From NCBI GenBank assembly GCA_028820455.1, contig JAPPJC010000049.1, positions 39,168-103,167 of the forward strand: a stretch of DNA of 64,000 nucleotides, in the 5' to 3' direction. The DNA comes from Acidimicrobiaceae bacterium. GTDB taxonomy: Bacteria > Actinomycetota > Acidimicrobiia > Acidimicrobiales > Aldehydirespiratoraceae. Position numbers and translations under genes: made by a program. The notes beneath the pieces are model-generated. The model was given only the letters and a program-made list of their open reading frames with translations, was not told the DNA's origin and ran no database searches. Shown piece by piece: positions 1 through 27,150 of the stretch; within the stretch, counting starts at the first letter, position 1; each line of letters begins with the position of its first letter.

Positions 1-92
1 GTGGCATAATCATGATGACAACAGGACATGATCAGCATGTTAGACAAGCACAGGAGACTGTGGCAAGTTGCGACGCGATCGGTTTGAGTGTT

Positions 93-1187
93 ATGTCTCG
101 TTGCCATAACCGAGTGGTGCGTACTTGTGTGTTGACAGTGTTGGTCATGGTGTTTGGCTCTTGTGGTTCCAGTGACAGTAACGTGGACGGCCCGCTATCG
201 CAACCATCGTTTGATGAAAATAGTATGTCACAATCCCCAGACCCGTCATTGTCTTCTGAAACAACTCATCAGTCACAAGCCACGGAAACTACAATATTTG
301 AGCTACCACAGCCATCACAAAATGTTACGCCACCCACCACCACCGAACCACCTCCACAAACCGGGACGACCGTCGCACCTACCACAACTGAAACACAAAA
401 AATTGAGTATGCGACTTTTCGTGACGGCTCAGCACCGCAATGGCCGTTTCGAGGGCTTGTGCAGTTGTGGCCTAGTCAGACAAGTAATACTGGTGATCGC
501 CTCAAGCCGAGTTGGGTGTTGCGCTATTGGAGTTGGGATGTATCTGCTGAAACATACCCGCAGGTTGTGCTGCCCGATTTGCGGGTTGACTGTTTGGGTA
601 AGGTCGCTCTGATAGTACACGCAGAACGTGGAATCGAAGTTGGTGGCCCGCCCGGTACTACTAACAGCATGTATTGGATACCATGGGGTGGACTAGCACA
701 ACAGGTCGATGCGCCTTCACAAGAACTGTTACAAGCGCAGCAGTCACGTCCATCCAATGTTACTGTGAACACCGAAGGAGATTGGGTGCATATAGACACG
801 GGCTCGCAGATGCAGTCTTATGCGATGCGTGACCCTATAAGATCTGCTGGCTCACGATGGAATGTGCAAGCACGTCATGATGGTGAAATATTTTTGGTCA
901 CTGTGCATCCCACGCATCTGCCATGCTATTCAGGTGTGACCTGGATGTCACTAGCAGCAACCGGTGAACATGTTATTTGTGGTGCTAACTCTGCGGCTAC
1001 GGCGTTTGTTGCTCCATCGGGGTTTGTGTCTCAACAGTTAGTGCTGCCTGACCCGGACACGTTTGGTACGTACCTGTCATGCGCACCGCAACTCAACCTA
1101 GAGTATATGCGATTTACGGAAGCTCCACGATCTTTGGTCTCTTCATTGCACTGGCAAAAATTGGGAATGACACCTAAGAACTATTGA
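93..1187 (+). CDS. Family A paralog A1: predicted secreted lipoprotein, unknown function
   Basis: ORF 12..1187. ATG at 93 gives a signal peptide ending VFGSC (lipobox-like), then a Ser/Thr/Pro linker. Motifs APQWPFRGLVQLW, RYWSWD, HLPCYSGVTW and CGAN are shared with 5 other ORFs here. Confidence 0.8.
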   Translation: MSRCHNRVVRTCVLTVLVMVFGSCGSSDSNVDGPLSQPSFDENSMSQSPDPSLSSETTHQSQATETTIFELPQPSQNVTPPTTTEPPPQTGTTVAPTTTETQKIEYATFRDGSAPQWPFRGLVQLWPSQTSNTGDRLKPSWVLRYWSWDVSAETYPQVVLPDLRVDCLGKVALIVHAERGIEVGGPPGTTNSMYWIPWGGLAQQVDAPSQELLQAQQSRPSNVTVNTEGDWVHIDTGSQMQSYAMRDPIRSAGSRWNVQARHDGEIFLVTVHPTHLPCYSGVTWMSLAATGEHVICGANSAATAFVAPSGFVSQQLVLPDPDTFGTYLSCAPQLNLEYMRFTEAPRSLVSSLHWQKLGMTPKNY

Positions 1188-1338
1188 GACCTTACAAGAA
1201 CTTTTGCGTCATATCCAATCCAGTCATCTATTACATGTAATCGGATCTGAAATGTAATGTGCTAAACAGATAAAAGAATGAACGCGAGTCCTGTTGACTC
1301 ATTTGTGTGTGATCCACCCTATCACAAGAAAGGCTTTT

Positions 1339-2286
1339 ATGAGTGTGTCAGACTGTACTTATGACCCACCTGATACTATCAGTTTTGCTGATAATGTAAA
1401 GATAGAGTCAGCTGATCCTGCTGGTTTAGACATAAAGTTCGCGAATAATTTGTTGCCAACGCGAAACTCACGTCATGTGTTAGGTGCTCCACCTGACGAT
1501 GCAACACCATTTGTATGGGGTCATAGTTCTTTACAGACACCGTTGGATTCGTTTGTAAAAAACACAAACTATTTCTCGGCTATGTATGGAAATTATGGAA
1601 CAATGAAAATCATCGGTCATATAGGGGCTCAAAGAGACAGATTGAGATGTGATGTTCCAAACCGAGATTCATACGTGCATTGCCAACGCGACGAATCCGA
1701 CCCGGCGGAGTTATTGGATCTGGAGACCAGTGCTGTGCTGCCGCAGGGTAGTTCGATCAATCCGAGTTTTCATTATCATGGCAAAGCACTCGACATCACC
1801 TGGATTTATTGGGATAATCATGGCGTCCCGATCTATTGCCTGCCTTATGATGCTCTAACAGAAGCGGAAGATGTTACGACTCACCGTCGGCTAATAGCAG
1901 TGGAAGCAGGGTTGCGTAAATGGTTCGGCTACGTCCTTAACCGTGGCATCAGTAATCATCACAATCATTTTCATGTGGATAATGATTGTCCTGTGGCTTT
2001 GAGGCTCAAAGATAGTAGCTCAAGCAGGACGCATACTTCGTGCCATTTCTTCATGCAGGATTGTATCTACGCTTTCACAGATGAGAAGATAGCCTATGAT
2101 GGCGACTGGGGCCCGAAGTCGAAGCATGGTTGTAAGACGTTGCTATCGGATTTTGGGATGGAATGCCTGAACCCTGCTAAGTATGTGAGTCATTACATGC
2201 TGTTTCTTGACTATGTTATGATGCACGGTTTCGCTGACGCGCCTGCTGGTACTTACCGTTGGGGTGATAGTGCGTTGGTGGTGTGA
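1339..2286 (+). CDS. Family B paralog B1: leaderless LAS/M15-like zinc peptidase with PG-binding-like C-terminus
   Basis: ORF 1294..2286. ATG 1339 gives MSVSDCTYDPP, as at other copies. FHYHGKALD (H-x6-D) and HHNHFHVDN (HxH) form the metal-site signature. YDGDWGPKSKHGCKTLLSDFG resembles PG_binding_1. No signal peptide. Confidence 0.8.
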   Translation: MSVSDCTYDPPDTISFADNVKIESADPAGLDIKFANNLLPTRNSRHVLGAPPDDATPFVWGHSSLQTPLDSFVKNTNYFSAMYGNYGTMKIIGHIGAQRDRLRCDVPNRDSYVHCQRDESDPAELLDLETSAVLPQGSSINPSFHYHGKALDITWIYWDNHGVPIYCLPYDALTEAEDVTTHRRLIAVEAGLRKWFGYVLNRGISNHHNHFHVDNDCPVALRLKDSSSSRTHTSCHFFMQDCIYAFTDEKIAYDGDWGPKSKHGCKTLLSDFGMECLNPAKYVSHYMLFLDYVMMHGFADAPAGTYRWGDSALVV

Positions 2287-3317
2287 CGCCTTGGTGGTGG
2301 TTGGGTGTTGTTATGTGTAAGGTTGTGGTGGTTGCGCTGTTTTTAGGTTTTTGTGTTGGTGGAGTGTTGTACGGGTTTGGTGGTGTGGGCGCAGTTGATG
2401 TTGTTGTGGACGGCGAGGTGGTGGTTATTGGTGGTGTGGGTTCACAGGGTGGTTTGATGGCTGCGGGTGGGCGTTCCCCTGTTTGGCCGTTTCGTGGGAT
2501 TGTGAGGTATGCTGTTAGTGACACGGATGGTCATATGGTGTTGCAGTATTGGAACACTGAAACTGGCGCGATCAGTGAAGTGCAGTTGGGGCCTCTGCCT
2601 GGTTGTGGGATATCACCGGTGGCTAGTGATAAGCTTGTTGAGTTGGGGAGTTGGAGTCCAAACTATTATAACGTCATGTCTGATGGTCCGGTCAGGTATG
2701 TGGTGCCGTGGGGTGATGAGGCTTATCCGGTGCTTAATGCGCCGGGTTATGGTGATGATATCCCGGTTACAGCGGGACGGCCTGTGGTGAATCAAACGGT
2801 TTTTGATGGCAGGTTAGAAGTTTCGCATGTTGGGGATCTCTTGGATGGAGCGTTTGTTCTTCGTGTGGCTACACCGCAGCAGGAAGCGTATTACAATCCT
2901 GGTTATGATCCGTCTTCGGATACGGGTAGCGGGTACTGGCCAACGCTTGATGAGGTTCCATTACGTGGTGTTGACACGGAGGATTCTTATGATGAGGGGC
3001 CTTGGGTTGCTGCGGTTGGTACGGACGGTTTCTATTATGGCATAGGAGTCTTTTACAACGATCCGGCCTGCCCGGCGGAAGACCTTTATATTTTTGCGGG
3101 TGATACTGGTGAAGTGGTGGCATGTTCGCATTCTGCATCGGGTCCCGCTTTAGGAGGCGCAGCGTTTGTGCTGCCCGAAGGAGCGCAGCTTCTTGACCGT
3201 TTCGCCTTGCCTCAGCCTTTCACTACCCAGAAGTGTCCAGGATTGGATCTCTGGAAACTGGGAATACCACCGATTCCCAGCAGTGGGCCACCAACCCCTG
3301 GCAGCGGGCGTGACTGA
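2283..3317 (+). CDS. Family C paralog C1: N-terminally membrane-anchored protein, unknown function
   Basis: GTG 2283 overlaps the B1 stop (GTGA); alternative ATG at 2313. TM segment VVVVALFLGFCVGGVL. Motifs SPVWPFRGIV, LQYWNTETG, VPWGDEAYP, GTDGFYYG, AGDTGEVVAC. Confidence 0.8.
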   Translation: MTPWWWLGVVMCKVVVVALFLGFCVGGVLYGFGGVGAVDVVVDGEVVVIGGVGSQGGLMAAGGRSPVWPFRGIVRYAVSDTDGHMVLQYWNTETGAISEVQLGPLPGCGISPVASDKLVELGSWSPNYYNVMSDGPVRYVVPWGDEAYPVLNAPGYGDDIPVTAGRPVVNQTVFDGRLEVSHVGDLLDGAFVLRVATPQQEAYYNPGYDPSSDTGSGYWPTLDEVPLRGVDTEDSYDEGPWVAAVGTDGFYYGIGVFYNDPACPAEDLYIFAGDTGEVVACSHSASGPALGGAAFVLPEGAQLLDRFALPQPFTTQKCPGLDLWKLGIPPIPSSGPPTPGSGRD

Positions 3318-3452
3318 TGCTTGGGTTGGGGTGTGCGGAATCCGCTGTGGAACCGCCTTCCAACAGAAGACTGGGTTGATGAAGTTCTTGCTGTTGTGTG
3401 TTGGTAGTGTGCGGGATTGTCCGCTGGTTGTCTGCTTACTGGGTTTGAGCTG

Positions 3453-4436
3453 ATGAGGCGTTGTTTTGTGTTGGCGATGAGTGTACTGGTCGTGTGTTGC
3501 GCGTGTGCTGGTGGCACAACGTCTGAGGAGGTTTCACAGCCGTCGACTACCGAACATACAGTTCTTGAACCACCAACTGAAAATGGCAAACGCAGCACGA
3601 CCACCGATTCGCCAATGACAACGGATGAACCTGTGGGTGTGGAAACTGAGCGGCCGGTGGTTACCACGACTACGTCTGTTGTGACTACTACCAGCACGCA
3701 GCTGCCGTTAGAAAAAGAACTCCCAAGTTTCGAGGATGCGCCAGCACCCGAGCGGCCTTTCACCGGTTTGGTGCAGCTTTGGTACTTGCCGTACGCTGAG
3801 CGAAAAGGCTGGAGGTTGCGGTACTGGAGTTGGGACACACCCGCTGATGAGTATGCACAGGTGTTACTACCAGACCTACAAGTAGAGTGCCTCGGTCGGA
3901 TAGCGATGGTCGCCGACGATGAGCACGGTATCGAAATCGGTGGCCCCGAAGGTACCACCAACAGCGCGTTTGTGGTCCCTTGGGGAGGCACCGCCCAAAA
4001 GACGGGTGCGCCTTCTGACAAACTTCTCGAGTGGGCTACCCAGAGGCCTTCTAACATAACTGTGCGCACCGAAGGCGACTTGGTACACGTAAACACTAGT
4101 ATTCAGCAGCACTCTTATGCGATGCGCGATCCCGTACGACCTGACGGTGACCGATGGACAGTGCAAGCCCGCCATGATGGTGAACTTTTCCTGCTAACAG
4201 TGCATCCGGCGCATCTGCCGTGCTATTCTGGTGTTACTTGGGTATCACTAGCAGAAACCGGTGAGTTCGTCACGTGTGGTGCCAACACCGCGGCCACACT
4301 GTTTGTCGCCCCGGAACCACCCGCCGGTGAGCTGATTCTACCGGATCCTGACACTATGGGAACTTATCTGTCATGCGCGCCTGAACTTAACCTGGAACTC
4401 CTACCGTTTACCAAATCACGTCAACTCACTCGATAA
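3453..4436 (+). CDS. Family A paralog A2 (predicted lipoprotein)
   Basis: ORF 3417..4436. ATG 3453 gives MRRCFVLAMSVLVVCCACAGG. Thr-rich linker. ERPFTGLVQLW, RYWSWD, HLPCYSGVTWVSLAETGEFVTCGAN. Confidence 0.8.
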   Translation: MRRCFVLAMSVLVVCCACAGGTTSEEVSQPSTTEHTVLEPPTENGKRSTTTDSPMTTDEPVGVETERPVVTTTTSVVTTTSTQLPLEKELPSFEDAPAPERPFTGLVQLWYLPYAERKGWRLRYWSWDTPADEYAQVLLPDLQVECLGRIAMVADDEHGIEIGGPEGTTNSAFVVPWGGTAQKTGAPSDKLLEWATQRPSNITVRTEGDLVHVNTSIQQHSYAMRDPVRPDGDRWTVQARHDGELFLLTVHPAHLPCYSGVTWVSLAETGEFVTCGANTAATLFVAPEPPAGELILPDPDTMGTYLSCAPELNLELLPFTKSRQLTR

Positions 4437-4575
4437 CAGTCTCTCAGGGTTATCCGACGGGGTTTATACTTCTAGTTTTGCGGGTAAACACTACTGGTGA
4501 ATCTGTATTGATAACACAACTTTGCTATGAATGCGCGATTTATTGATGAGGCTGCTGCTATTGTGGATTGTTAAG

Positions 4576-5835
4576 ATGACGTACAAGCGTTATAAGGGCT
4601 GGATTGGCAATAAATTAGGTCTGGGTTTTCGTTTCGGCTTGGTTGTTGCTGTAGCTGCTAGTGGTGCGGTTGTTGGTGCTGACATGGCTGCTAGGGTTGG
4701 TGTGTCACAGCAGCTGTTGGGGGTCGTTGGTGTTGATAGGCCATCGCAGCTGTTGGCGGGTTCTGAGGTTGGTTTGCAGGTAGGTTCGGGTGGTGTGGTG
4801 GAATTCTCAGGTAGGGCTGATGGTGAATCTTTGGGCGTGGGAAGGAACTTTGCGCATCGGGGTGATGGCCTAGCACCAGTTTGGCCTTTCCGTGGAGTTG
4901 TGGATTCCGGGAGGGCTGATGATGGGGGGTTCGTGTTGCGGTTTTGGAGCATCGAATCCGGTGGGGTTTATGATGTGCCACTAGGAGCTATGTCACAGAG
5001 CGAACCGTATTGGTATTCTGATCGGGAGTATTCCGATGATCACTCTTATGCTGGTGATGTCCTGTATGCTAGCGAGGAGTTCGTGATTACTCAATTAAGT
5101 AACAGACTATCTCCTCTTAACGAGGATTGGACTCCTCATAGAGAGGAACGGACTAGGTGGTGGTGGATTGTTGTTCCGTGGGGTGATGAGGCGTACCCTG
5201 TTTTGTGGCCTGAAGTTCTTGTGGAATCTGAGTTGAGTCCAGAACGATTATCACAGGCTGAGGGTTTTGAAGTGTCTTTTGTCGAAGATCTTCATCGTGG
5301 CAGTGTGTTGCGTGTTGTCACACCACCCGAGGAAGCTTACTACGACTTGGATTACAGTTGGGATGTGTCGAGTCACACAGCAGGCACTGATGAGTATTAT
5401 GCGGCGTATCACCGGTCTTTTCATGTTCTGTTAGAGTTGAGCGAACCGCCGTCTGATCCTGTGGATTATTCTGATTATGAGTCTGAGGATAGTCCTTTTG
5501 GTGCCTTGGCGTACGATAGGTACATAACGTGGTTGAGGGAAGCTCCTTATGTTCGGTTTGATGGTACTGACGGCTACTATTATGGTATCACGATTATGGT
5601 GGCTCCAGATTTAGAGGATGCGACCGCTAGGGATTCGTGGGGTTTTGTTTTCGCTGGGGATACTGGTGAGGTTGTTAGTTGTCGCAGAGTGTTCAGCACT
5701 GCTGGAGCTCTGCTGGTGAAACCCGAGGGCTGGTCGGATCTTGTCGACCGTTTCGTGTTGCCTGAAGCCTTTTCAGGCTCGGATTGTGTGGGTACCGGAG
5801 AACTGCATAACCTGTCATCGGGTGAGGTGTCATGA
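4576..5835 (+). CDS. Family C paralog C2 (long subtype)
   Basis: ORF 4531..5835; ATG 4576 precedes TM segment FGLVVAVAASGAVVG. APVWPFRGVV, VPWGDEAYP, GTDGYYYG, AGDTGEVVSC. Confidence 0.75.
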   Translation: MTYKRYKGWIGNKLGLGFRFGLVVAVAASGAVVGADMAARVGVSQQLLGVVGVDRPSQLLAGSEVGLQVGSGGVVEFSGRADGESLGVGRNFAHRGDGLAPVWPFRGVVDSGRADDGGFVLRFWSIESGGVYDVPLGAMSQSEPYWYSDREYSDDHSYAGDVLYASEEFVITQLSNRLSPLNEDWTPHREERTRWWWIVVPWGDEAYPVLWPEVLVESELSPERLSQAEGFEVSFVEDLHRGSVLRVVTPPEEAYYDLDYSWDVSSHTAGTDEYYAAYHRSFHVLLELSEPPSDPVDYSDYESEDSPFGALAYDRYITWLREAPYVRFDGTDGYYYGITIMVAPDLEDATARDSWGFVFAGDTGEVVSCRRVFSTAGALLVKPEGWSDLVDRFVLPEAFSGSDCVGTGELHNLSSGEVS

Positions 5836-5953
5836 CCATACAGCTGTTCTGTTAGCACTGTATTTGGTTATGTGGCTGTTTGGTATCTGAACACGAGCAC
5901 GAACAGTACAGGCTGGACTACGGTTGCTATAACCACCTTTTGGTTAAGGCTGA

Positions 5954-6981
5954 TTGAGACACGGAGGTAAACGTATGGAAGAATGCAGCTATGATGATGC
6001 TCCAAGCTACGCGGACAGGTATCGGCGAGTTGGAAGTGTCTACCGTCATAGTAATGGTTCTATTTTAAGTCAAATCTTCTCTTTAGGGAATAAAAACCTA
6101 ACGGTAGACGTTCGGCCAGTAGTAGATTGGGCGGACACAAGAATTAATGACAAAATAACTTCAAAGCCGGAATGCAATCTTGATCTGGGGCAATTGGGGC
6201 AGGATATAACAAAGGCTAAGAGGAAAGGCAGAAATCCGTATTTGTTCGGTGGCCCATATAATGCGAACTATAAGTTCGATATTCATCCTGATATGGTGGC
6301 ACCGTTGAATAGTGCTGTTGTGACTATCGATTATTTTGCTCGGGTTTATGGTGACAACTATGGAAGACTCAAGGTGATCGGTCAGGGTGGCACGATAAGA
6401 AATCGTACGGGCTCTGATAGTTTTCATTATCATGGTAAGGCTATTGATATTTGGTGGTTGGGTTGGGAGAACCAGCAACAAGGCGGCACTGTGGTGCATA
6501 CCGCGTCTCGTCCGTGTAATGGTGCAGGTGAGGTGTCTTCAAGTTTAACAGCCCACCGTCGCCTAGTAGCGGTAGAAGCTGGACTGCGTAAATGGTTCGG
6601 CTACGTTCTGAATCGGAATATCGCTGGACATCACAATCATTTTCATGTTGACAATGGCTGTCTTGTGGCGTTGAGGGTTGATAATGAGCCTGAGGGATTG
6701 CCAATCCTGAAACACCAGATCGACCGGTTCGTTCGTGCCACTATTTTTTGCAGGACTGCATAAACGCATTTACGGATGTGGAAATAGACTATGATGGGAT
6801 ATGGGGGTCTCAGTCGGATCGGGGTTATAAAGCACTGCTGTCTGATTTTGGTATGGAGTGCTTGCACCCTGCTAAGTATGTGAGTCATTACATGCTGTTT
6901 TTGGATTATGTTATGATGCATGGTTTCGCTGACGCTCCTGCTGGTACGTATCGTTGGGGTGACGGTGCGCTGGTATTGTAA
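5954..6981 (+). pseudogene. Family B paralog B2, apparent frameshift
   Basis: ORFs 5954..6763 and 6748..6981 together cover a full B protein (FHYHGKAID, HHNHFHVDNGC, then HYFLQDCINAF...HYMLFLDYVMMHGFADAPAGTYRWGD). The frame switch maps to GGG run 6694-6696. It may be a homopolymer sequencing error. Confidence 0.7.
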
Positions 6982-7010
6982 CGGGTCAAGTTCTGTTAGT
7001 AGATGAATCG

Positions 7011-8050
7011 GTGGTAGTGGTGGGTAGTTATTTCGCAGCTGTATCTGTTGTTGTGGTATTTTCTGTTGGTGTAAGTGGTGCTGGGTTGGGAGACGTAGAA
7101 GATGTTGAGGACGGTGTGTCTGTAATATCAGCGGGTAGTGCTGTGGGGAACTTGTAGTACAGGGTGGTTCTGGGGTTACGGTTGGTCGGACTCCGGTTTG
7201 GCCGTTTCGTGGTATCGTGAAGTATGGTCTTGATGATGAGGGTGAGTCCGAGTATCCCGATTATTATGAGTGGAGACCTTTGGATTTGTTGTTTAGTGGT
7301 GAGCATAATGTGTTGCAGTATTGGCATACTGACACGGGTGAGATCACTGAGGTGCGGTTGGGGCCATTGCTCGGTTGTGAGCTGCAGATAGTGCCATTTG
7401 GTAGTGCTGTCGTGGTGTACGATAGTAGTGGCATGCTTGATCCGTCGCCTTTTTTTGGGTTCGTGCAGTATGGAGTGCCGTGGGGTGATGAGGCGTACCC
7501 GTTGGTTCGTGGGGTTGGTGTTGGTAGTGGCATGGATTCTGATGAGCGTTCGGTGCAGCAGTCGTTTCTGTTGGGCAAGTTGGCTGTATCGTCTGTCGGG
7601 GAACTTCTTCGTGTGTCAACACCACAACAGGATGCGTACTACGACACTTATGTCAATGCTAGGATCGGGTTGATGCTGGCGGATGCTCCGCATATTAGTG
7701 AGCTTGAACCTGAAAATGATGGTGAGTCGTGGTTTTGGCCTAGTGCTGACGTTATTGGTACTGATGGTTTTTACTACGGTGTTGGTGAGATTTATAACGA
7801 ACCGGCGTGGTGTCCGGGTGCGTATGGTTTTGTTGTGGCTGGTGATACTGGTGAGGTGGTGGCTTGCGGTAGTTTTAGGGGTTTGGATTCTGTTGGTTTG
7901 GGGGGTGTGGCGTTTGTGTTGCCTGAGGGTTCGCCGGGTTTTGTTGATAGTTTTGCTGTGCCTCAGGGGGTTCCACCTGGTGGTTGCAAGAATTTAGATT
8001 TGGAAACGTTGCGGGTGCCACAGACTGCTGGTGTGGATGTGACCCGGTGA
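7011..8050 (+). pseudogene. Family C paralog C3, apparent frameshift between TM anchor and body
   Basis: The TM-like N-terminus (GSYFAAVSVVVVFSVGVSG) reads in frame 3 from GTG 7011 to TAG 7155-7157. The body (TPVWPFRGIVKYG... to 8050) is in frame 2 and opens only after TAG 7136-7138. The switch is at G-run 7145-7148. The tracked ORF is 7217..8050. Confidence 0.6.
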
Positions 8051-9126
8051 TGTTGAGTGTGCTGCGATGGTGGGTGGTGGTGTGGGTGCTGGTGGTGTGT
8101 GTTGCTTGTGCCAACAGTGATACCCCAGAGGATGCTCCCCAGTCTTCAGAGGCTGTGACAGGGGTGGCAGGGTCGCAGTCGGTGGAGTCTTCTGCTGATG
8201 ATCCTGTGAGTGACAGGCGAGACGAAAGTGATGATACCGCATTCACGAACTCGAATTCAAACGGCCAGGACATAGAACAACTCGGAGAGAGATCACCCGA
8301 GGAGGAAACATCACTGGTGGGTGAAACATCCCCGGCGACTACGATCCAGACTACGACAACTACAACGTTTGCACCCTTAGATAAAGAATACCCATCTTTC
8401 GGTGCAGACGGTGCTGATACCGCACCGCGGTGGCCGTTTCGGGGTTTGGTGCAGCTCTGGTACAACACGTATAGTTTCATGGGTGAACTGGGTTGGTCGT
8501 TGCGGTATTGGAGTTGGGACACATCCGCTGAGATATACCCCCAAGTACCGTTACCAGGCCTGGAAATTGAATGTATGGGCAGAATCGGCATGGTCACACA
8601 CGGTGAGCTTGGCATAGAGATAGGTGGCATAACAGACACTGCTAGTAGCACGTATTGGATCCCTTGGGGTGACACCGCAGCAAAAGTCGACACAGCTTCT
8701 GAGATGCTGCTAACACAAATACGTGATAGGTCTTCAAGTGTTGAGGTGGCAACCGAGGGAGACTGGGTGCACCTGACCACCGGCACCCAGCAACAGTCAT
8801 ACGAGATACGCGATCCTATGCGACCCGATGGTGACCGATGGACAGTGCAAGCCCGCCATGATGGTGAACTGTTCCTGCTAACAGTGCACCCGGCGCACTT
8901 GCCGTGCTATTCTGGTGTCACTTGGGTGTCACTAGCCGCAACCGGTGAGTTCGTCACGTGTGGTGCTAACACCGCGGCCACACTGTTTGTCTCCCCGGAG
9001 CCACCCGCTGGTGAGCTGATACTACCAGATCCTGATACTATGGGCACATACCTGTCATGTGCACCACAACTCGACCTCACCAACCTCCCATTCACACAAG
9101 ACCGGCAACTCACACCACCACACTGA
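8050..9126 (+). CDS. Family A paralog A3 (predicted lipoprotein)
   Basis: ORF 7984..9126. ATG 8050 overlaps the C3 stop by 1 nt (TGATG) and gives MLSVLRWWVVVWVLVVCVACANS. PRWPFRGLVQLW, RYWSWD, conserved C-terminus. Confidence 0.8.
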   Translation: MLSVLRWWVVVWVLVVCVACANSDTPEDAPQSSEAVTGVAGSQSVESSADDPVSDRRDESDDTAFTNSNSNGQDIEQLGERSPEEETSLVGETSPATTIQTTTTTTFAPLDKEYPSFGADGADTAPRWPFRGLVQLWYNTYSFMGELGWSLRYWSWDTSAEIYPQVPLPGLEIECMGRIGMVTHGELGIEIGGITDTASSTYWIPWGDTAAKVDTASEMLLTQIRDRSSSVEVATEGDWVHLTTGTQQQSYEIRDPMRPDGDRWTVQARHDGELFLLTVHPAHLPCYSGVTWVSLAATGEFVTCGANTAATLFVSPEPPAGELILPDPDTMGTYLSCAPQLDLTNLPFTQDRQLTPPH

Positions 9127-10437: not shown

Positions 10438-10690
10438 CCCAACGATAAGTACCAGCAGGCGCGTCGGCGAACCCGTGCATCATCATGTAATCTCAAAACA
10501 GCATGTAGTGGTTGATGCACCGAACTGGGTCTAGGCATTCCATCCCTAAATCCGATAGCAGGGTCTTGTATCCGTGATCCGACTCGTCATTCCACACGCC
10601 GCTGTAAGCTGGTTGCTCATCAGCGTGTGTGTCCATGAGTGCAGCCCTGCCGAACCCACCAACCAGAACCATGAACCGGTTATTAGATCA
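10425..10690 (-). pseudogene. Family B C-terminal fragment with in-frame stop
   Basis: The reverse strand reads ...YSGVWNDESDHGYKTLLSDLGMECLDPVRCINHYMLF*DYMMMHGFADAPAGTYRWGDNALVL*. TGA replaces the conserved Leu codon. No catalytic half lies upstream. The 3' end overlaps the C4 start. Confidence 0.75.
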
Positions 10691-12725: not shown

Positions 12726-12803
12726 CACCTTCAAATATGCCAAGGGAAGGCTTGAACAACATAGCGTCTATAGCGGATTCTCAACACAGCAACCACAGAT
12801 CGG

Positions 12804-13464: not shown

Positions 13465-13507
13465 TACCTGAGAAATCCTAAGTCGTCGCCAAACGAGGAG
13501 CCGGGAT

Positions 13508-15217: not shown

Positions 15218-15380
15218 AGGGTGATGGTACGCTTAATTCTGCTGGTGGTGCCTTCTCAGGTGCTGTTTGATGTCTAGTATTGTTGCATCGGAAGATGCGC
15301 AGTTCTTAATGTTTCTTAATGTTGGCATTGCCAGCACATTTGGGATTTGAACGTTGATGTAAACAGCGCGGGGTTGGATC

Positions 15381-16376: not shown

Positions 16377-16480
16377 TGGTATAAGCTCCAGTGGTGTTTA
16401 CATGGGAGGATCCTTTTACACGGAGCATCATGATGGATGGTTGGTTATACCACTTGAAGTGACGGGGTTGGTGGTTTGTA

Positions 16481-17275: not shown

Positions 17276-17568
17276 TGAGCACACTCGCTGGCATCAGTAC
17301 ACCAACACCGCATGTCGCGCGAATGCTGCCACAACTACCTGAAGACACCAAAGAGGTCGGTGGTGGTATCGCATGCCGCGCGAATGCTGCCACAACATGA
17401 CAACGCTCGTTCTTAGCTGTAAGGTTGCATTTGCCGGTCACTCCATCGGTTCCAGGCAGGACTCTGTGGTGAACAGAACAAAACCGCGGGCGGAATTGTG
17501 ATAGGCAAAACCGTGGAGAACAGAAGTAGGTATTGGAGGTGAGTGGATTGTTGTTTGAAAGCCAGATA

Positions 17569-20910: not shown

Positions 20911-21897
20911 TCACCCCCACCGGAAAGTGCCAGCAGGCTTATCGGCAAAACCGTGCATCATAATATAATCCAAAAACAGCATATAATGATTTATACATTT
21001 ATGTGGAGACAAGCATTCCATCCCCAAATCCGACAGCAATGTCTTATACCCCTTCTTCGATTTAGGACCCCAGTCCCCATCGTATGGAACTTCCTTATCA
21101 GTAAAATCTGTGAACGCCACAATACAATCCTGCAGGAAATAGTGACATGTTGTATAGGTCGTGCCAGTGCTACTGGTTTTAAGTCTTAGTGCCACTGGAC
21201 AGCCATTGTCAACATGAAAATGATTGTGATGTCTATCAATGTTCCGGTTGACAACATAGCCGAACCACTTACGCAATCCCGCCTCCACTGCTACTAACCT
21301 ACGATGTCTCGTAAGACTACGGCCCACTTCACCTGCAGCGTTGCACGGACGTGATGCCACATTACCACTCCACTGCACCCATGCAATGTCAAGTGCCCGA
21401 GCATCACAATGATAGCTAAGGTCCCCAGACGCACACCCACTTGCAGGCCTTTGAGCACCTAGGTGCCCAATGACTTCCATATTTCCATATCCATGGCCAT
21501 AAGTACGAGAAAAATAATCGGTATTGACAACAAACGAATCCAAAGGCTTCTGCATCGAAAGGTCGCATTCGAAGCTGCCTGGTTGATCGAATATCAAATC
21601 CCCGTCGTCATCACGCAATTCATCCATCGTTGCATCTAGATCGCATGTTGTCCAGTGCCATCCACTTGTCCTAGGCTGCCCAGTTAAGCCAGGTTGAACC
21701 GTCCGGAATTGGACTCTGAGGTTGTTATTCCCTGCGTCTGTAATGCGAGTGCCAGGAGGATTATATCTTGTGGGACGGTGCCTGTCATATGAGCATGTCG
21801 GTATGGTATCTATGGGTTGTTGTGGCATGTGATGATTGTTGACTACTATAGACATTAAAGGTGTGCTTTCTAGTGGCATCGGCTGTTTGTTTGACAT
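20911..21897 (-). CDS. Family B paralog B5 (LAS/M15-like peptidase)
   Basis: 328 aa. YHCDARALD (H-x6-D), RHHNHFHVDNGCPVALR, YDGDWGPKSKKGYKTLLSDLG, HYMLFLDYIMMHGFADKPAGTFRWG. Exact start uncertain. Confidence 0.8.
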   Translation of the reverse strand: MSNKQPMPLESTPLMSIVVNNHHMPQQPIDTIPTCSYDRHRPTRYNPPGTRITDAGNNNLRVQFRTVQPGLTGQPRTSGWHWTTCDLDATMDELRDDDGDLIFDQPGSFECDLSMQKPLDSFVVNTDYFSRTYGHGYGNMEVIGHLGAQRPASGCASGDLSYHCDARALDIAWVQWSGNVASRPCNAAGEVGRSLTRHRRLVAVEAGLRKWFGYVVNRNIDRHHNHFHVDNGCPVALRLKTSSTGTTYTTCHYFLQDCIVAFTDFTDKEVPYDGDWGPKSKKGYKTLLSDLGMECLSPHKCINHYMLFLDYIMMHGFADKPAGTFRWG

Positions 21898-21938: not shown

Positions 21939-23021
21939 TTATGATTGCGGTGATATAAGGGTTCGTTCTTTCGTGAACGGTAATGTCATCAGATTAAGTT
22001 TCGGAGCGCATGACAGGTAGGGGTAAAATGCTTCTGCATCGGGTAACACCAAAGGTTGCAGCTCAGCTTCTGGTGGTAGTACAAAAGTGGTGGCAGCAGA
22101 GTTGGCACCGCAGGTAACGAACTCCCCGGTTGCCGCTAATGACACCCAGGTCACACCCGAATAGCACGGAAGGTGCGCAGGGTGCACTGTGAGCAAGAAC
22201 AGTTCGCCGTTGTGCTGTGCCTGGGATGTCCAGCGGATACCATCAGATCTTATTGGATCACGCATCGCATAAGACCGCATCTGCGAGCCCGTGTCTATAT
22301 GCACCCAGTCCCCTTCGGTGTGTACGGATATGTTAGATGAACCTGTGCGTGCAACTTCTAACAGTTCTTGTGACGGTGCATCGGTTCGTTGTGCTACACC
22401 ACCCCAAGGAACCCAATACGTACCATTGGCAACACCTTCAACACCACCGATTTCGATACCACGGTCATCGTGCACCACCATAGCGATTTGGCCTAAGCAA
22501 TCAATCCGCAAACCAGACAACTCCAACTGTGGATATTCCTTATCGGCAGGTGGATCCCAACTCCAAAAACGCAATAACCAAACCGACTTTTTGTGGCTGG
22601 GCCACAGTTGCACAAGCCCGTGGAACGGCCACTGTGGTGCGGTGCCATCAACAAATCTTATGAACTCAGGCTTCTTTAGCGCAGGAGCTGTTGTAGTTGA
22701 CGGGACTTGCGGTTGAGAAGTCGTTGTGGGTATAGTCTGTGGTGCGTTTGTAGGCGGTTTCGATGTTGAATCTTCTGGTTGTGGTATAGTCGTACCATCT
22801 AGAGACTCCAATGGTGTCAGAGTTTGACTATCCGCTGATTCTTGTTCGCTATCCGATGTGCTCTCATCCTTATTTCCGGAAGCTGGCAGTTCTGTCGTGA
22901 AGTTACCATCTATCGTGCTAGAGACTTGTGAATCTTTCTGTGGGGTTCTGTTACTGGCGCAAGCGGCGCACACCATCAGCACCGATGCTACTAATACCGC
23001 CAGAGCTTGCCCGTTTATCAC
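21939..23021 (-). CDS. Family A paralog A5 (predicted lipoprotein)
   Basis: 360 aa. MINGQALAVLVASVLMVCAACASN. APQWPFHGLVQLW, RFWSWD, HLPCYSGVTWVSLAATGEFVTCGAN. Confidence 0.85.
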   Translation of the reverse strand: MINGQALAVLVASVLMVCAACASNRTPQKDSQVSSTIDGNFTTELPASGNKDESTSDSEQESADSQTLTPLESLDGTTIPQPEDSTSKPPTNAPQTIPTTTSQPQVPSTTTAPALKKPEFIRFVDGTAPQWPFHGLVQLWPSHKKSVWLLRFWSWDPPADKEYPQLELSGLRIDCLGQIAMVVHDDRGIEIGGVEGVANGTYWVPWGGVAQRTDAPSQELLEVARTGSSNISVHTEGDWVHIDTGSQMRSYAMRDPIRSDGIRWTSQAQHNGELFLLTVHPAHLPCYSGVTWVSLAATGEFVTCGANSAATTFVLPPEAELQPLVLPDAEAFYPYLSCAPKLNLMTLPFTKERTLISPQS

Positions 23022-23483: not shown

Positions 23484-24824
23484 ATGCATCCTATAGGCTA
23501 CGGCAAGCTCATCGGGTTTGTTGCGATGATGCTTTTGGTGGTCGGTGTGTTCGTCGGTTCTTTCCCATTACTAGCAAGTTCTGACAGCACGCCTTCTGAC
23601 AGTATGGTATTGACAATGCTATTGGCGGCGTCTGAAACCCCACTACCGCAATCGTCAGGAAGTTCTGGGGTTGGTGTTGGTGTCGCACAGCAGATGTTGG
23701 CGGGTTCTGAGGTTGCTTTGCGGACGGGTGTGGGTGCTGCGGTGGAGTTTTCTGATAGTGCTGATGATGATGGTTTGGCACCGGTTTGGCCTTTCCGTGG
23801 GATTGTGGATTTCGGGAAGGACGAGGATGGGGAGTTTGTGTTGCGGTTTTGGGACACTGAGTCTGGTGTGGTGCATGATGTGCCGCTGGGAGCTATGTCG
23901 GAGGGCGAACCGTGCTGGTTTTCTGTTAATCTTGGTTCTCTTGATCATTATTCTGATATTTATGCTACTGAGGAGTTCGTGTTAGCCAGATTCGCTGACG
24001 ATATTTCTTTTTGGCGTAGCCGGGATAGGTGGCATGTTGTTGTTCCGTGGGGTGATGAGGCGTATCCTGTTGTGTGGCCTGAGATTCTTGTGGAGTCTGG
24101 GTTGGACGGGTTGTCGTTGGGTGAGGGTTTTGAAGCGGCTGGCTTTAATGGGTTTTCGCCCGCGTCTGGGTTAGACCCGTTGCCGTTGGGTGAGGGTTTT
24201 GAAGTGTCTTTTGCGTATAATGACTATCCTGATCATAAGGGTGTGTTACATCTTGTTGCTCCGCGTGATGAGGCTTATTACGACTGGGAGTTGGATGGCC
24301 TGGATTACGATTACATGGATGAGTATCCTCAGGAGGTCGCTGATGAGGTGATTAGTTCTGAGTGTGACCGGATTTCTTATGAGTTTGCTATTGGTGTTGG
24401 GTTGATGTTGGGTGAGCCTCCATCTGATCCTGTTGATTTTTTTGAGTTTTCGTCTGTGGATCATCCCCGCTTTTATGATTACAATGAGTGGGTGAGGGGT
24501 GCTCTTCAGGCTCGATTTGATGGCACTGATGGCTATCATTATGGTTTCACTATTATTATTCCAGCATTGGAGGGCGGCGGTATTTCAGACTTGTGGAGTT
24601 TTGTTGTTGCGGGTGATACTGGTGAGGTTGTCGCCTGTCGTAGAGTGTCTGAGACTGCGGTTGGGCCTTTGCTGGTGAAACCTGAGGGTTGGCCTGATCT
24701 TGTTGACCGTTTTGTGCTGCCGGAGGCTTTTTCTGGTTCTGTGTTTTCTGGTTCTGTGTTTTCTGGTTCGGATTGTACTGTCACCGGCGAGTTGCTCAAC
24801 CTGCCATTTGGTGGAGGGTCATGA
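23484..24824 (+). CDS. Family C paralog C11 (long subtype)
   Basis: 446 aa. TM segment IGFVAMMLLVVGVFVGSF. APVWPFRGIV, VPWGDEAYP, GTDGYHYG, AGDTGEVVAC. SGSVF x3 near the C-terminus. Confidence 0.8.
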   Translation: MHPIGYGKLIGFVAMMLLVVGVFVGSFPLLASSDSTPSDSMVLTMLLAASETPLPQSSGSSGVGVGVAQQMLAGSEVALRTGVGAAVEFSDSADDDGLAPVWPFRGIVDFGKDEDGEFVLRFWDTESGVVHDVPLGAMSEGEPCWFSVNLGSLDHYSDIYATEEFVLARFADDISFWRSRDRWHVVVPWGDEAYPVVWPEILVESGLDGLSLGEGFEAAGFNGFSPASGLDPLPLGEGFEVSFAYNDYPDHKGVLHLVAPRDEAYYDWELDGLDYDYMDEYPQEVADEVISSECDRISYEFAIGVGLMLGEPPSDPVDFFEFSSVDHPRFYDYNEWVRGALQARFDGTDGYHYGFTIIIPALEGGGISDLWSFVVAGDTGEVVACRRVSETAVGPLLVKPEGWPDLVDRFVLPEAFSGSVFSGSVFSGSDCTVTGELLNLPFGGGS

Positions 24825-25033
24825 TGGGTGTGGTTCTGCTATGTGGTGACCTTTTCAGGCTCTGCTCGATGTTGGTATTGGTGTATCGGAAAACGTGTGA
24901 GGTGTGTGCTCAGTGTTAATGCTGGCTAGCATATTTGGGGTCTGGATGATAGCGTGAACGGCGTGGGATTGGATATTGATTATCACGCTTACTTGTTTAT
25001 TTATGAGAGTGGTTAGGATTTGGAGGTAGTGTT

Positions 25034-26023
25034 GTGACTGGTTGTTTGGATTCTCCTAGCTATGCAGATAGGTATCAGTCGGTTGGAGGTGTTTACCGTT
25101 ATAGGGGCCGAGTGAACGGTGATGCTTTGGAGCAGATTTTCACTTTGGGGAATGAAAATTTGACTGTAGATGTTCGGAGGGTGGTCAATTGGCCGGGAAT
25201 GGGTGAGCCTAGGCTTTGTAAGCTTGATCAGCAGGATGTAACACTTGCTGAATGGGAAGGGAGAGAAGTGTCTGTGTTTGGTGATCCGTATGATGAGAGT
25301 AGCGGTTCCGGGTGTGATGTTCATCGTGATTTGGTGGCACCGTTGAATAGTGCTGCTGTGAATATTGATTATTTTTCTCGGGTTTTTGGTGATTATGGGA
25401 GGCTTAAAGTGATCGGGCAGGGTGGCACTATAAGAACTGAAGAGAGATCCACTCCTAGTTTCCACTATCATGCTAAGGCTATGGATATTTGGTGGGTGGG
25501 TTGGGAGGATCAGCAACAGGATGGGACTGTGGTGCATACTGCTTCGCGTCCGTGTAAAGGTGGGGGTGAGGTGTCTTCGGGTTTGACGGCTCATCGTCGG
25601 CTTGTCGCGGTGGAGGCGGGTTTGCGCAAGTGGTTTGGCACTGTTTTGAACCGGAACATCGACGGTCATGATAATCATTTTCATGTGGATATCGGGTGTC
25701 CTGTGGCTTTGAGGGTTAAAACCGCAAGCTCACGTGGCAAGGATTCGGCTCATTTTTTCTTGCAGGATTGTATTGTGGCGTTCACAGATTTTACTGATGA
25801 GGAAGTTCCATACGATGGTGATTGGGGTCCGAAATCGAAGAAGGGTTATGAGGCTTTGTTGTCGGATTTGGGGATGGAGTGCTTAGACCCGATTATGTAT
25901 GTGAGTCATTATATGCTGTTTTTGGATTATATCATGATGCATGGTTTTGCTGATAAACCGGCTGGTACGTACCGTTGGGGCGATAGAGTACTGGTTTTGG
26001 ATGACGGGTCCAGCAGTGCTTAG
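25034..26023 (+). CDS. Family B paralog B6 (LAS/M15-like peptidase)
   Basis: 329 aa. Starts MTGCLDSPSYADRY. FHYHAKAMD (H-x6-D), DNHFHVDIGCPVALR, YDGDWGPKSKKGYEALLSDLG, HYMLFLDYIMMHGFADKPAGTYRWGD. Confidence 0.85.
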   Translation: MTGCLDSPSYADRYQSVGGVYRYRGRVNGDALEQIFTLGNENLTVDVRRVVNWPGMGEPRLCKLDQQDVTLAEWEGREVSVFGDPYDESSGSGCDVHRDLVAPLNSAAVNIDYFSRVFGDYGRLKVIGQGGTIRTEERSTPSFHYHAKAMDIWWVGWEDQQQDGTVVHTASRPCKGGGEVSSGLTAHRRLVAVEAGLRKWFGTVLNRNIDGHDNHFHVDIGCPVALRVKTASSRGKDSAHFFLQDCIVAFTDFTDEEVPYDGDWGPKSKKGYEALLSDLGMECLDPIMYVSHYMLFLDYIMMHGFADKPAGTYRWGDRVLVLDDGSSSA

Positions 26024-26130
26024 TGTTAGTGTGTGTGAGAGCCGCTGGTGTGTGTTTTAGTGGTGTTTAGTGTTAGTGTGGGATCTGGTGGGTGGGGGTT
26101 GTTGGGGTAATGGGGTTTGGTGGTTTTGTG

Positions 26131-27150
26131 ATGCGTTTGGTGGGACTGTGTTTGGTGGGGGTGTTGTCAGTGGGGTGTGGTTCTGGTGAGTCGGATGGGG
26201 TTGGGGTGGATGAGCTGGTTGATGAGCCTGTTACGACTACGACGGTTGTGGGGGATTCGGGGGAGGATGTGACGACGACGTTGGTGCCTGATCCGACACC
26301 TGAGGTGACGGAGCCTGATCCGGTGCCTGTTACGACTACGACGGTTTTGGGGCCAGCTTCGGTTGTGTGGTCGTTGTTGCATAGGCCTGAGTTTGTCGTG
26401 GGTGTGGCACCTGAGTGGCCGTTTCGGGGTTTGGTGCAGTTGTGGCGTGGTGTTCATGAGTATCAGGATGTGTCTAGGGGTATGTGGGTGCTGCGTTTTT
26501 GGAGTTGGGATCCTACTGTAGAGACACATTCGGAGGTGTTGTTGCCGGATTTTGGGGTTGATTGTTTGGGTGGGTTGGTGTTGGTGTCGCATGGTGAGGT
26601 TGGTATCGAGGTTGGGGGTGCTGTTGGAGCTGTTGATGATGCTTTTTGGGTTGATTGGGGTGGTAGCCCGCGAAGAGTGGAGCCTTCTGAGGTGTTGTTG
26701 GAGGCTGCGGGATCGCGTCCATCCAATGTTCCTGTTGAAACCGAGGGTGATCTGGTGCGTGTTGGTGAAGGATTACAAGCGCGTTCTTATGCGATGCGTG
26801 ATCCGTTACGCTCGAATGGTCAGCGTTGGGATGTGCAGGCTCGTCATGATGGTGACTTATTCGTGTTGAGTGTGCATCCTGCACACCTAGAGTGTTTGTC
26901 GGGTGTAACCTGGTTGTCGTTGGCTGATACTGGTGAACTCGTAGCCTGCGGTGCTAACACTGCTGCCACCGTGTTCGTCACACCCGAACCACCCGACGAT
27001 AGAGGCAGTGGTGGTGACCATAGCGGTAATGACGACAATGGTGGTGGTCTTGTGATGCCCGACTCCGAAGTCATTGGTGTTTACTTGTCTTGTCCTGTTC
27101 CTTTAGACCTGGAATCGGTCTCCCTTCCCGAACTCAAACGGACAAACTGA
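26131..27150 (+). CDS. Family A paralog A6 (predicted lipoprotein)
   Basis: ORF 26092..27150. ATG 26131 gives MRLVGLCLVGVLSVGCGSG (good lipobox). APEWPFRGLVQLW, RFWSWD, HLECLSGVTW, ACGAN. Carries an extra Gly/Asp-rich insert near the C-terminus. Confidence 0.8.
   Translation: MRLVGLCLVGVLSVGCGSGESDGVGVDELVDEPVTTTTVVGDSGEDVTTTLVPDPTPEVTEPDPVPVTTTTVLGPASVVWSLLHRPEFVVGVAPEWPFRGLVQLWRGVHEYQDVSRGMWVLRFWSWDPTVETHSEVLLPDFGVDCLGGLVLVSHGEVGIEVGGAVGAVDDAFWVDWGGSPRRVEPSEVLLEAAGSRPSNVPVETEGDLVRVGEGLQARSYAMRDPLRSNGQRWDVQARHDGDLFVLSVHPAHLECLSGVTWLSLADTGELVACGANTAATVFVTPEPPDDRGSGGDHSGNDDNGGGLVMPDSEVIGVYLSCPVPLDLESVSLPELKRTN

Follow-up and report, generated by a model that had tools for sequence, protein, structure and literature searches.

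In the genome of a sponge-associated actinobacterium, three gene families, A, B and C, are multiplied in an array that occupies positions 1-27150 of the window (the whole stretch of 64,000 nucleotides analyzed here), and this array amplifies the 3' end, genes three to five, of an uncharacterized envelope operon, X-Y-B-C-A, that is conserved in Acidimicrobiia. The array looks most like a toxin kept together with a collection of spare antidotes. The explanation that we tentatively prefer, giving it a little less than an even chance, is that B is a cell-wall peptidase and that C and A are its cognate and orphan tethered binders or immunity proteins.

A six-frame scan with family HMMs derived from the window copies reproduces the inventory of the preliminary description, that is, six A genes, 11 C genes and eight B genes or remnants (four intact, two interrupted and two fragments). 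The same scan finds no further copy of A, B or C in the window past 27.2 kb. The content assigned to the first 27 kb stands, but position 1 is not the start of the array, which extends about 4 kb upstream of the window through four further copies (B, C, A and C), themselves preceded by X and Y just outside the window; in all, the amplified stretch is about 31 kb long, and about 35 kb when X and Y are counted.

The copies lie on the plus strand unless stated otherwise. A1 (12-1187; family A HMM E 8e-166) encodes a predicted lipoprotein consisting of a signal, a lipobox-like Cys (FGSC, residue 48), a Thr/Pro-rich linker and an all-beta domain. It is followed by B1 (1294-2286; family B HMM E 1e-145), an intact gene for a leaderless, LAS-like putative Zn peptidase that has no hydrophobic N-terminus and carries an insertion of about 40 aa ahead of the H-x6-D motif, and by the signal-anchored, G+T-skewed C1 (2283-3317), whose first 4 nt (2283-2286) are also the last 4 nt of B1. 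Next come the unskewed lipoprotein gene A2 (3417-4436), whose product was modelled with AF2, and the G+T-skewed C2 (4531-5835), of a long subtype in which it groups with C7 and C11. The pseudogene B2 (5954-6975) has two family B HMM matches in different frames (5987-6751 and 6712-6975), placing a frameshift near 6712-6751. C3 (7217-8050), the most G+T-skewed gene, lacks the N-terminal anchor and has a degenerate WPFRG motif, and it meets the lipoprotein gene A3 (7984-9126; gene call from 8050) in a 1-nt junction at 8050. An inverted segment on the minus strand holds C4 (9307-10437, found by the family HMM) and, directly upstream of it, a B fragment (10496-10627, minus strand; HMM positions 261-304).

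The intact B3 (10952-11881), with an 18-aa insertion just ahead of H-x-H, precedes the short-subtype C5 (11958-12725), and a B fragment from the H-x-H region (12864-12938; HMM positions 220-244) lies directly upstream of C6t (12961-13464), which retains the N-terminal half only. Beyond the long, G+T-skewed C7 (13829-15217), the pseudogene B4 (15381-16376) is interrupted by a single in-frame change, TGG to TAG at 16011-16013, which hits the invariant Trp of LRKWFG. The short-subtype C8 (16481-17275) and the lipoprotein gene A4 (17533-18648), with a 24-aa insertion, are followed on the minus strand by C9 (18629-19744; inverted segment, family HMM), C10 (19926-20846), the intact B5 (20911-21897), directly downstream of which C10 lies, and the lipoprotein gene A5 (21939-23021; inverted segment, family HMM). 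The array closes on the plus strand with the long, G+T-skewed C11 (23484-24824), the intact and G+T-skewed B6 (25034-26023), which belongs to the subtype of the pseudogenes B2 and B4, and the lipoprotein gene A6 (26092-27150), the most divergent A copy, skewed over its 5' two-thirds. B6 is the only B with A, not C, next downstream; across the array, C directly follows B in 8/9 B copies or remnants.

An assembly artefact can be dismissed, because the paralogs are old (DNA identity within the array 66-77%); in addition, an independent second assembly agrees at 100% over 12.3 kb. Both gene junctions noted earlier, at 2283-2286 and 8050, are real, the latter agreeing with the gene calls in L005. 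Start/stop overlaps running from B to C to A suggest translational coupling, and the overlaps between B and C argue for a shared function of the two.

A survey of related genomes for the co-occurrence of A, B and C, proposed in the preliminary description, finds the B-C-A order kept in 18 other loci, and the unit is not the free three-family cluster described there but a conserved five-gene operon. The complete order X-Y-B-C-A is seen again in Candidatus Poriferisodalis and further Acidimicrobiia and lies on one strand in all adequately long loci (L002, L004, L006-L012 and L024), with the B-C-A order also present in L001 and L019-L023; no further conserved ORF, such as a holin, was found within it. 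X is a large secreted protein with predicted PPC-like domains. Judged by the twin-arginine pattern [ST]-R-R-x-F-L ahead of a hydrophobic segment, Y is a Tat-signal protein, with RRRFL, RRGFL or RRQFL in 8 of the 12 Y copies. Y stands immediately upstream of the first B in every case; in the array, a single Y accompanies five intact B genes. All operon products except B, that is, X, Y, C and A, are predicted to be exported.

B has the metal-ligand pattern of LAS enzymes, H-x(3-6)-D plus H-x-H (or [ED]-x-x-H): H163-x6-D170 and H226-x-H228 are invariant in 44 B sequences, and the motifs occur in all four intact window copies. B5 scores 19.2 bits against Pfam Extensin-like_C (PF06904), under the gathering threshold of 25.4, and only four of the 44 members match this family at E <= 0.01 (best E 1.3e-5). 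For the AF2 model of B5 (pLDDT 85, pTM 0.86), the only sensible Foldseek match in the PDB is 1lbu (probability 0.77, E 0.17, 95 aligned columns), the Streptomyces albus DD-peptidase that founded the LAS group. B resembles the LAS zinc metallopeptidases (1lbu, VanX/VanY, ChiX, Ply500; PF06904) in its H-x6-D and H-x-H motifs and perhaps in its central alpha/beta core, the part that Foldseek aligns best with 1lbu, but differs from known members in that its database matches are all sub-threshold. Features of its own are a beta region at the N-terminus, an invariant HRRLVAVEAGLRKWF helix and, at the C-terminus, a conserved domain of three helices that has no database match. Of the earlier description of B as a leaderless LAS peptidase, the leaderless part and the metal motifs hold, as no hydrophobic N-terminus, and hence no export signal, is present in any of 38 B homologs (0/38); the LAS assignment is weak, coming from motifs and sub-threshold matches only.

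The missing signal could also mean that B stays in the cytoplasm and alters the wall chemistry from inside as a D-amino-acid dipeptidase or peptidoglycan-precursor editor of the VanX type, with C and A as separate envelope proteins of the same operon; LAS enzymes do include the cytoplasmic VanX (PMC5778951). We consider this very improbable, since the other four operon products are predicted to be exported, B contains 7-11 Cys besides its conserved three helices at the C-terminus, a Sec signal is present in the nearest annotated relative, an Extensin-like_C protein from Devosia, and the way the gene overlaps C at start and stop points to a joint function.

Families A and C are distant homologs, as had been proposed (hhalign probability 98.7%, E 4e-16), and the motifs AP.WPFRG, YW and TGE.V.CG common to them are real. 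Their proteins, 250-460 aa long and with long flexible linkers, share a confidently modelled all-beta domain (pLDDT about 95 for the globular part of A2, AF2) and four conserved Cys, from which two disulfides each are predicted. The proposed extracytoplasmic location is borne out by a lipobox-like Cys in all six window copies of A and in 40/57 A homologs (by a simple rule), and by an N-terminal anchor in 21/26 C homologs; the lipobox Cys of A is invariant (C51 in the alignment), with position -3 often non-canonical (C/F/S). A and C are outside any described family: profile and structure searches against Pfam, NCBIfam, PADLOC, PDB sequences, Foldseek PDB and BFVD gave no match, and a set of 1.84 billion clusters contains only 142 representatives of the domain. 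Structurally, A has beta-propeller ligand binders as its weak neighbours, for example, 8okv, a BtuG-like lipoprotein (E 3.7e-3, probability 0.63), and these matches are insignificant (TM <= 0.22).

Paralogs of A are mosaics in which a gene-converted 3' block is 85-98% identical at the DNA level and the rest has diverged, and the array as a whole is a mosaic with inverted segments. Tethered, flexibly linked extracytoplasmic proteins in such a mosaic, with ligand binders as their weak structural neighbours, in a clade that is mostly sponge-associated Ca. Poriferisodalis, might form a variable surface-protein repertoire, in which A and C would be adhesins, nutrient or ligand receptors or phage/host-recognition decoys, the copies would provide antigenic or ligand diversity in the sponge host, and B would be an accessory enzyme, for example, trimming wall peptides. 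However, neither invertible promoters nor a recombinase nor near-identical silent cassettes were found at the array, the structural matches are insignificant, and a dN/dS of about 0.2 for A2 and C1 between strains (0.21 for A2 against a related strain) speaks against fast antigenic change. The tight coupling of B to C and the uneven decay of the families are likewise left unexplained, and we regard a surface repertoire as improbable. This dN/dS also gives no support to the diversifying selection suggested earlier, of which no gene-wide signal was detected for A2 and C1 between strains; single paralogs are maintained by purifying selection.

Decay falls mainly on B, with degraded copies numbering 9/31 for B, 5/40 for C and 2/28 for A; the difference between B and A plus C (7/68) is statistically modest (p=0.036), copies within one locus not being independent. 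Units without an intact B, in the form of C-A pairs, B-fragment-C or B-fragment-C-A, occur in L004, L009, L010, L017 and L019. The genomic position of the locus varies among genomes, and a defence island adjoins the array.

The composition of the operon leaves room for a physiological role. An operon that includes X and Y and stands in single copy among housekeeping genes in L002 and L004 also fits an envelope function, and B could open the wall locally for the insertion or passage of X (and Y), with C and A scaffolding, positioning and restraining it and the extra copies sub-functionalized for wall chemistries or growth states. Such an assembly or remodelling module is possible, if on balance unlikely. 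It agrees with the constant presence of X and Y, both predicted to be exported, beside B-C-A and with the purifying selection on the paralogs, and the leaderless LAS peptidase ChiX can serve protein export, not killing (PMC5778951). However, it does not explain why B-C-A but not X is amplified, up to 13-fold, nor the decay of B against the persistence of C and A and the B-less units in other genomes, nor the mobility of the locus and its defence-island setting.

Peptidase and tethered binders together, our preferred explanation, would account for the array as a lineage-specific amplification of B-C-A. In this mechanism, B would be a zinc-dependent peptidase of LAS fold, most likely cutting peptide bonds in peptidoglycan, and the signal-anchored C and the lipoprotein A, paralogous all-beta proteins on the outer face of the membrane that would be produced together with B, would bind B at the cell surface and neutralize or restrain it, shielding the wall of the producer. 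Extra diverged C and A copies would then serve as "immunity" binders, some cognate and some orphan, that counter the variant B proteins of competitor strains, and surplus B copies would be free to decay. B without a signal peptide would need a non-classical exit, the most economical guess being co-export with the Tat-signal protein Y; such hitch-hiking of B on Y is pure inference, and the single Y for five intact B genes speaks against it.

The effector-and-binder hypothesis of the preliminary description gains indirectly from these results in several respects. As in polymorphic toxin/immunity loci, an enzyme gene is followed by a partner gene, and B remnants and B-less units are found. Furthermore, B decays preferentially, the A paralogs are mosaics, individual paralogs are maintained, B varies most in its first 110 aa and in loops next to the metal ligands that are prone to insertions, the locus differs in position among genomes, and a defence island is close by. 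Against it, Pfam and neighbourhood searches for an exit of B reveal neither a domain for secretion or trafficking (LXG, WXG, Rhs, etc.) nor a holin or a transporter dedicated to B, and gene-wide positive selection was not detected. In addition, the catalytic core and the C-terminal domain of B are strongly conserved whereas C is very diverse, unlike classic co-diversifying toxin/immunity domains.

Several known systems resemble the locus in part. In T6SS and T4SS effector/immunity pairs (Tae/Tsi, Tge/Tgi, X-Tfe/X-Tfi), found in diderm hosts with identified injection machines, the gene for a wall-degrading enzyme lies directly upstream of that for a periplasmic or surface-tethered inhibitor, often a lipoprotein, and orphan immunity arrays occur. 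The array would follow the same logic, given the function proposed for B, but differs in its actinobacterial host, in that no delivery apparatus was identified, and in having two homologous partners after each enzyme. Class III bacteriocins or bacteriolysins, such as lysostaphin and zoocin A, are peptidoglycan peptidases of the LAS family that Gram-positive bacteria secrete against relatives and that have a targeting domain at the C-terminus; they have Sec signals, and immunity is due to FemABX-like cross-bridge modification, not to binding proteins. Bacteriolysins are not known to form paralog arrays, whereas B has no Sec signal and lies in a paralog array with putative binding proteins.

The T7SSb of S. 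aureus offers a further parallel, in which the leaderless toxin TslA is accompanied by tandem arrays of TilA (DUF576) lipoprotein immunity genes beside restriction genes, and these arrays combine converted blocks with a diverged remainder, as the A paralogs do (PMC10730906). Both systems comprise a leaderless enzyme, polymorphic in its N-terminal region but helical and conserved towards the C-terminus, and variable tandem arrays of diverged lipoprotein paralogs reshaped by inter-paralog recombination near restriction-system genes. However, TslA, a lipase, has an LXG-like domain for targeting, small helical partners and proven T7SS dependence, whereas B is LAS-like, its C-terminal domain consists of three short helices without an LXG/WXG signature, and such partner genes and a T7SS link are not seen here. 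Furthermore, A and C have neither a sequence nor a fold relationship to DUF576, and the present locus has two tethered families (a lipoprotein and its signal-anchored homolog) plus the conserved X and Y.

As ChiX demonstrates, activity outside the cytoplasm is open to a LAS peptidase without a leader, and the order of leaderless LAS peptidase, N-terminally anchored protein and lipoprotein parallels chiWXYZ (PMC5778951). On this parallel, the locus could be a domesticated phage lysis cassette or type 10 secretion-like module, with B as endolysin, C as an i-spanin-like protein and A as an o-spanin-like lipoprotein. That idea is hardly tenable and largely refuted, since the holin ORF is absent, the homologous A and C proteins are globular and rich in beta structure, unlike the small coiled coils of spanins, no relatives were found on viral contigs, and spanins would be unexpected in an actinobacterial host.

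A bolder proposal, which we count as a long shot, is that X-Y-B-C-A is an undescribed actinobacterial antagonism system, in which B, as a signal-less Zn peptidase of peptidoglycan, would be exported on the Tat carrier Y, C and A would be two tethered immunity families of new fold, and their genes would be diversified by strand-specific, block-wise hypermutation. The array does contain blocks of extreme coding-strand G+T (keto) skew with sharp edges, the largest at 23500-26700 on the plus strand, spacers included, and others at about 2100-3400, 4500-5800, 6750-8050, 13650-15300 and 16200-16800. G+T at four-fold degenerate sites is 0.73-0.87 in the blocks versus 0.48±0.06 in non-array genes. A diversity-generating retroelement was considered and rejected, as no RT domain is found among window ORFs of at least 150 aa and near-identical repeat pairs are absent; the skew also disfavours it, since both adenine and cytosine are removed and the change is not adenine-specific. 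The same loss of these two nucleotides from the coding strand marks C and A genes in several genomes, and the co-oriented X, Y and B genes in those comparisons are free of it.

ORF listing and translation of positions 1-27150 yielded three recurring protein types, namely A (a lipoprotein family), B (a leaderless LAS-like zinc peptidase family) and C (a signal-anchored family), each of which was aligned and converted into a family HMM for a six-frame scan. The scan returned the same inventory as the preliminary description, that is, six A genes, eleven C genes, four intact and two interrupted B genes and two B fragments, and found no A, B or C relatives between 27.2 and 64 kb. Numbering the copies in array order, C3 (7217-8050) lacks the N-terminal anchor and C6t (12961-13464) is truncated, both according to the family HMM scan; B2* (5954-6975) is interrupted by a frameshift and B4* (15381-16376) by a single TGG-to-TAG nonsense change in an invariant Trp codon (16011-16013), and the B fragments lie at 10496-10627 (minus strand) and 12864-12938. 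The overlaps noted earlier are real as well (4 nt between B1 and C1, and a 1-nt junction between C3 and A3). Upstream of the window in this genome lie X (a large secreted protein) and Y (a Tat-signal protein), then B, C, A and C copies, and the complete locus reads X Y B C A C A1 / B1 C1 A2 / C2 B2* C3 A3 / C4(-) Bfrag(-) in the 5' part, B3 C5 / Bfrag C6t / C7 B4* C8 A4 in the middle, and C9(-) C10(-) B5(-) A5(-) / C11 B6 A6 in the 3' part. Counting copies or remnants, the whole locus holds seven A, thirteen C and nine B, the largest expansion seen. An assembly artefact can be ruled out as its origin, because array paralogs share only 66-77% DNA identity and the locus agrees at 100% over 12.3 kb with its counterpart in a second assembly (L005).

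When the DNA around relatives on megabase contigs was retrieved and the neighbouring genes were classed with the family HMMs, the A-B-C cluster was found to recur, and to do so within a same-strand five-gene operon, X-Y-B-C-A, present in five Poriferisodalis species representatives, Ca. Aldehydirespirator and other Acidimicrobiia MAGs. The B-C-A order is also kept in six metagenome contigs, and in other genomes the (Y-)B-C-A units number between one and three. All three families are very small: 53 homolog matches for B, 67 for A and 36 for C were obtained among 5.8 billion clusters, and when A and C were combined in an exhaustive profile search, only 142 representatives emerged among 1.84 billion. 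By named matches, the window belongs to an Acidimicrobiaceae MAG and its relatives to Candidatus Poriferisodalis (Acidimicrobiia). The surroundings of the operon vary from genome to genome; at locus L002 its flanks (5026-6215 and 13348-14454) consist of duplicated fragments of chorismate synthase and pyridine-nucleotide oxidoreductase genes, which suggests insertion by recombination, and at L003/L007 C and A are separated by two inserted DDE transposase genes (12402-15176). In addition, the GC content of B genes is ~0.5 in every genome (L001-L012), including those in which the adjacent X, Y, C and A genes reach 0.65-0.72; B may have been transferred recently or be under an unusual constraint.

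Protein X (700-2400 aa) contains repeated PPC-like/DVUA0089 domains, the only family matched in an NCBIfam/PADLOC search, and begins with a signal or anchor where its start is visible. Protein Y (~370 aa) has a twin-arginine motif in 8 of 12 copies and no detectable homology to anything searched, including NCBIfam, PADLOC and PDB chains; as a candidate homolog of A/C or B it was likewise not detectable. Family A carries a signal followed by a lipobox-like Cys (all six window copies and 40 of 57 homologs), and family C an N-terminal anchor without lipobox (21 of 26). In both, a low-complexity linker leads to an all-beta domain of ~235 aa with four conserved Cys, and the homology between A and C that had been proposed from shared motifs is significant (hhalign probability 98.7%, E 4e-16). 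The first reading could place A and C in no family, and profile and structure searches agree, with no significant match in Pfam, NCBIfam, PADLOC, PDB or BFVD. The domain is modelled at pLDDT ~95, yet is without a structural neighbour; a Foldseek search with A turned up nothing beyond weak beta-propeller-type matches in PDB and BFVD (TM <= 0.22), and A contains no internal sequence repeats. PDB-chain sequence searches with A, B, C, X and Y returned nothing meaningful. Some metagenomic relatives of 900-990 aa (P0157, P0173, P0179 and P0207) contain three or four tandem A/C-type domains per polypeptide and no informative fused Pfam domain; they may be real fusions or gene-call artefacts. Two antisense ORFs across the A2 and A3 linker regions (3212-4096 and 7875-8786, minus strand; 294 and 303 aa) are probably spurious frames arising from Thr/Pro-rich (ACN/CCN) linker codons.

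In B, H163-x6-D170 and H226-x-H228 are invariant in 44 sequences, the only Pfam match is a sub-threshold one to Extensin-like_C, and the AF2 model is confident (pLDDT 85, pTM 0.86). For this model Foldseek returned only one sensible PDB neighbour, the weakly matching 1lbu (probability 0.77, E 0.17), founder of the LAS enzymes. On these sequence and model comparisons, the motifs of B are LAS-like and its fold probably is too, and it is a member of no curated family; NCBIfam and PADLOC gave no match, and no relevant description was found in the literature on Extensin-like_C and on Poriferisodalis. Conservation is strong in the core and in a three-helix domain at the C-terminus, and variability is found in the first ~110 residues and in insertion-prone loops beside the metal ligands. 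A by-eye reading of the three-helix domain as PG_binding_1 was dropped, as no Pfam match appears even at E <= 10. None of 38 B homologs has an N-terminal hydrophobic segment, and a Devosia Extensin-like protein, the closest relative with an annotation, carries a Sec signal. A cytoplasmic VanX-like role for B is quite improbable. The reading that the evidence supports best, which we prefer tentatively and at somewhat less than even odds, takes B as a zinc peptidoglycan peptidase, with C and A as membrane-tethered extracytoplasmic partners that would bind and neutralise or restrain it. A precedent for a leaderless LAS peptidase acting in the periplasm is ChiX (PMC5778951). Export is the weakest link of this peptidase/binder model, no trafficking domain, holin or transporter having been found for B; the strict Y-B adjacency suggests that B might leave the cell by co-export with the Tat protein Y. 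An origin from a phage or lysis cassette was rejected for want of viral relatives and a holin, and a lysis-cassette or type 10 secretion-like origin is rated barely plausible.

C directly follows B in eight of nine B copies or remnants, and a sub-type unit, long-C -> B' -> C -> A, has been duplicated three times. Over all loci, degraded copies make up 9/31 for B, 5/40 for C and 2/28 for A (B versus A plus C, Fisher p=0.036), and units without an intact B (C-A pairs, B-fragment-C and B-fragment-C-A) recur at other loci. The A paralogs are mosaic, with the last ~300 nt 85-98% identical in four copies and the remainder 30-70%, which indicates gene conversion. Comparison with a related strain (L025 and L026, 87-92% DNA identity) gives a dN/dS of ~0.2 for A2 and the alignable part of C1; therefore individual paralogs are conserved, and the diversifying selection suggested in the preliminary description finds no counterpart in gene-wide positive selection. 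That the copies serve as a surface-variation repertoire is improbable. In both L025 and L026, which come from different sequencing runs, 175 nt are missing from the 3' part of C1 (3037-3211), and there the truncated C1 ortholog adjoins an intact A2 ortholog. Control by invertible promoters or a shufflon was rejected, since the inverted repeats turned out to be nothing more than paralogs, no dedicated inversion sites accompany the inverted segments, and promoter/terminator matches are at chance level. A physiological wall-editing module serving the insertion of X, the main rival and an unlikely but serious one, would account for the conservation of X and Y and for purifying selection on the paralogs, but leaves the selective B-C-A amplification, the decay of B and the mobility of the locus unaccounted for. 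Under the peptidase/binder model, the expansion would represent a repertoire of cognate and orphan binders of B, and surplus enzyme genes would decay.

Directly downstream of the array, positions 27318-63287 form a dense defence island. It comprises genes for a YgjP-like peptidase and HsdR (27318-31749, minus strand), an N6_N4 methylase (34796-35989, minus), a UvrD-like helicase (36773-39022, plus), AAA_14/DUF4143 (42400-43674, plus), PNP_UDP_1-EAD1 (47556-48593, minus), GAP1-N1/EAD1, DO-GTPase1, DO-GTPase2 and GASH (48590-53980, minus), an IS1595 transposase (56248-56994, plus), HsdS and HsdM (57465-61035, minus) and GmrSD (61437-63287, plus), the type I R-M genes being split ~26 kb apart by inserted systems. 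The ~2.5 kb separating hsdR from the next long gene (31750-34236) contains short overlapping ORFs on both strands and no ORF of at least 150 aa. A second precedent is TslA/TilA (PMC10730906): the toxin TslA is leaderless, polymorphic in its N-terminal region and conserved in its C-terminal helical domain, and as many as 18 lipoprotein immunity paralogs (TilA) occur with it in tandem beside restriction genes. The logic of a wall enzyme with tethered partner or immunity arrays is already known; the families, the five-gene operon, the two-paralog partner arrangement, the export route and the nucleotide skew of the array are undescribed in the resources searched, and none of the libraries searched describes four of the five families (A, C, Y and most of B). 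If the immunity model is true, the locus would provide a new enzyme/inhibitor pair for cell-wall antagonism in Actinomycetota and a first glimpse of how strains of uncultivated sponge symbionts fight one another, and the export problem of a leaderless wall enzyme could reveal Tat hitch-hiking of an effector; if remodelling is true, a clade-specific wall-editing machine would be defined.

Finally, seven array genes (C1, C2, C3, C7, C11, B6 and A6) exhibit an extreme coding-strand G+T excess, with four-fold degenerate-site G+T of 0.73-0.87 versus 0.48+-0.06 in non-array genes. The keto-skew blocks (~2100-3400, 4500-5800, 6750-8050, 13650-15300, 16200-16800 and 23500-26700) are sharply bounded, take in spacers and parts of adjacent genes, and cease over ~150 nt or less, as at the C3/A3 junction. 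The skewed copies are no closer to outside homologs than unskewed ones, and recent import was rejected on this ground. Relative to the paralog consensus, A6 has lost C and A mainly via C>T and A>G but also through transversions, and its excess of C>G, A>T and T>G leaves a pure deamination signature unsupported. Overall, the skew suggests a local mutational process that treats the two strands differently. Co-oriented X, Y and B genes of other genomes show no skew; a milder skew is present in C/A genes of other genomes (L001, L004, L008-L011 and L019-L022), and such bounded G+T blocks, recurring across genomes, are worth study in their own right.
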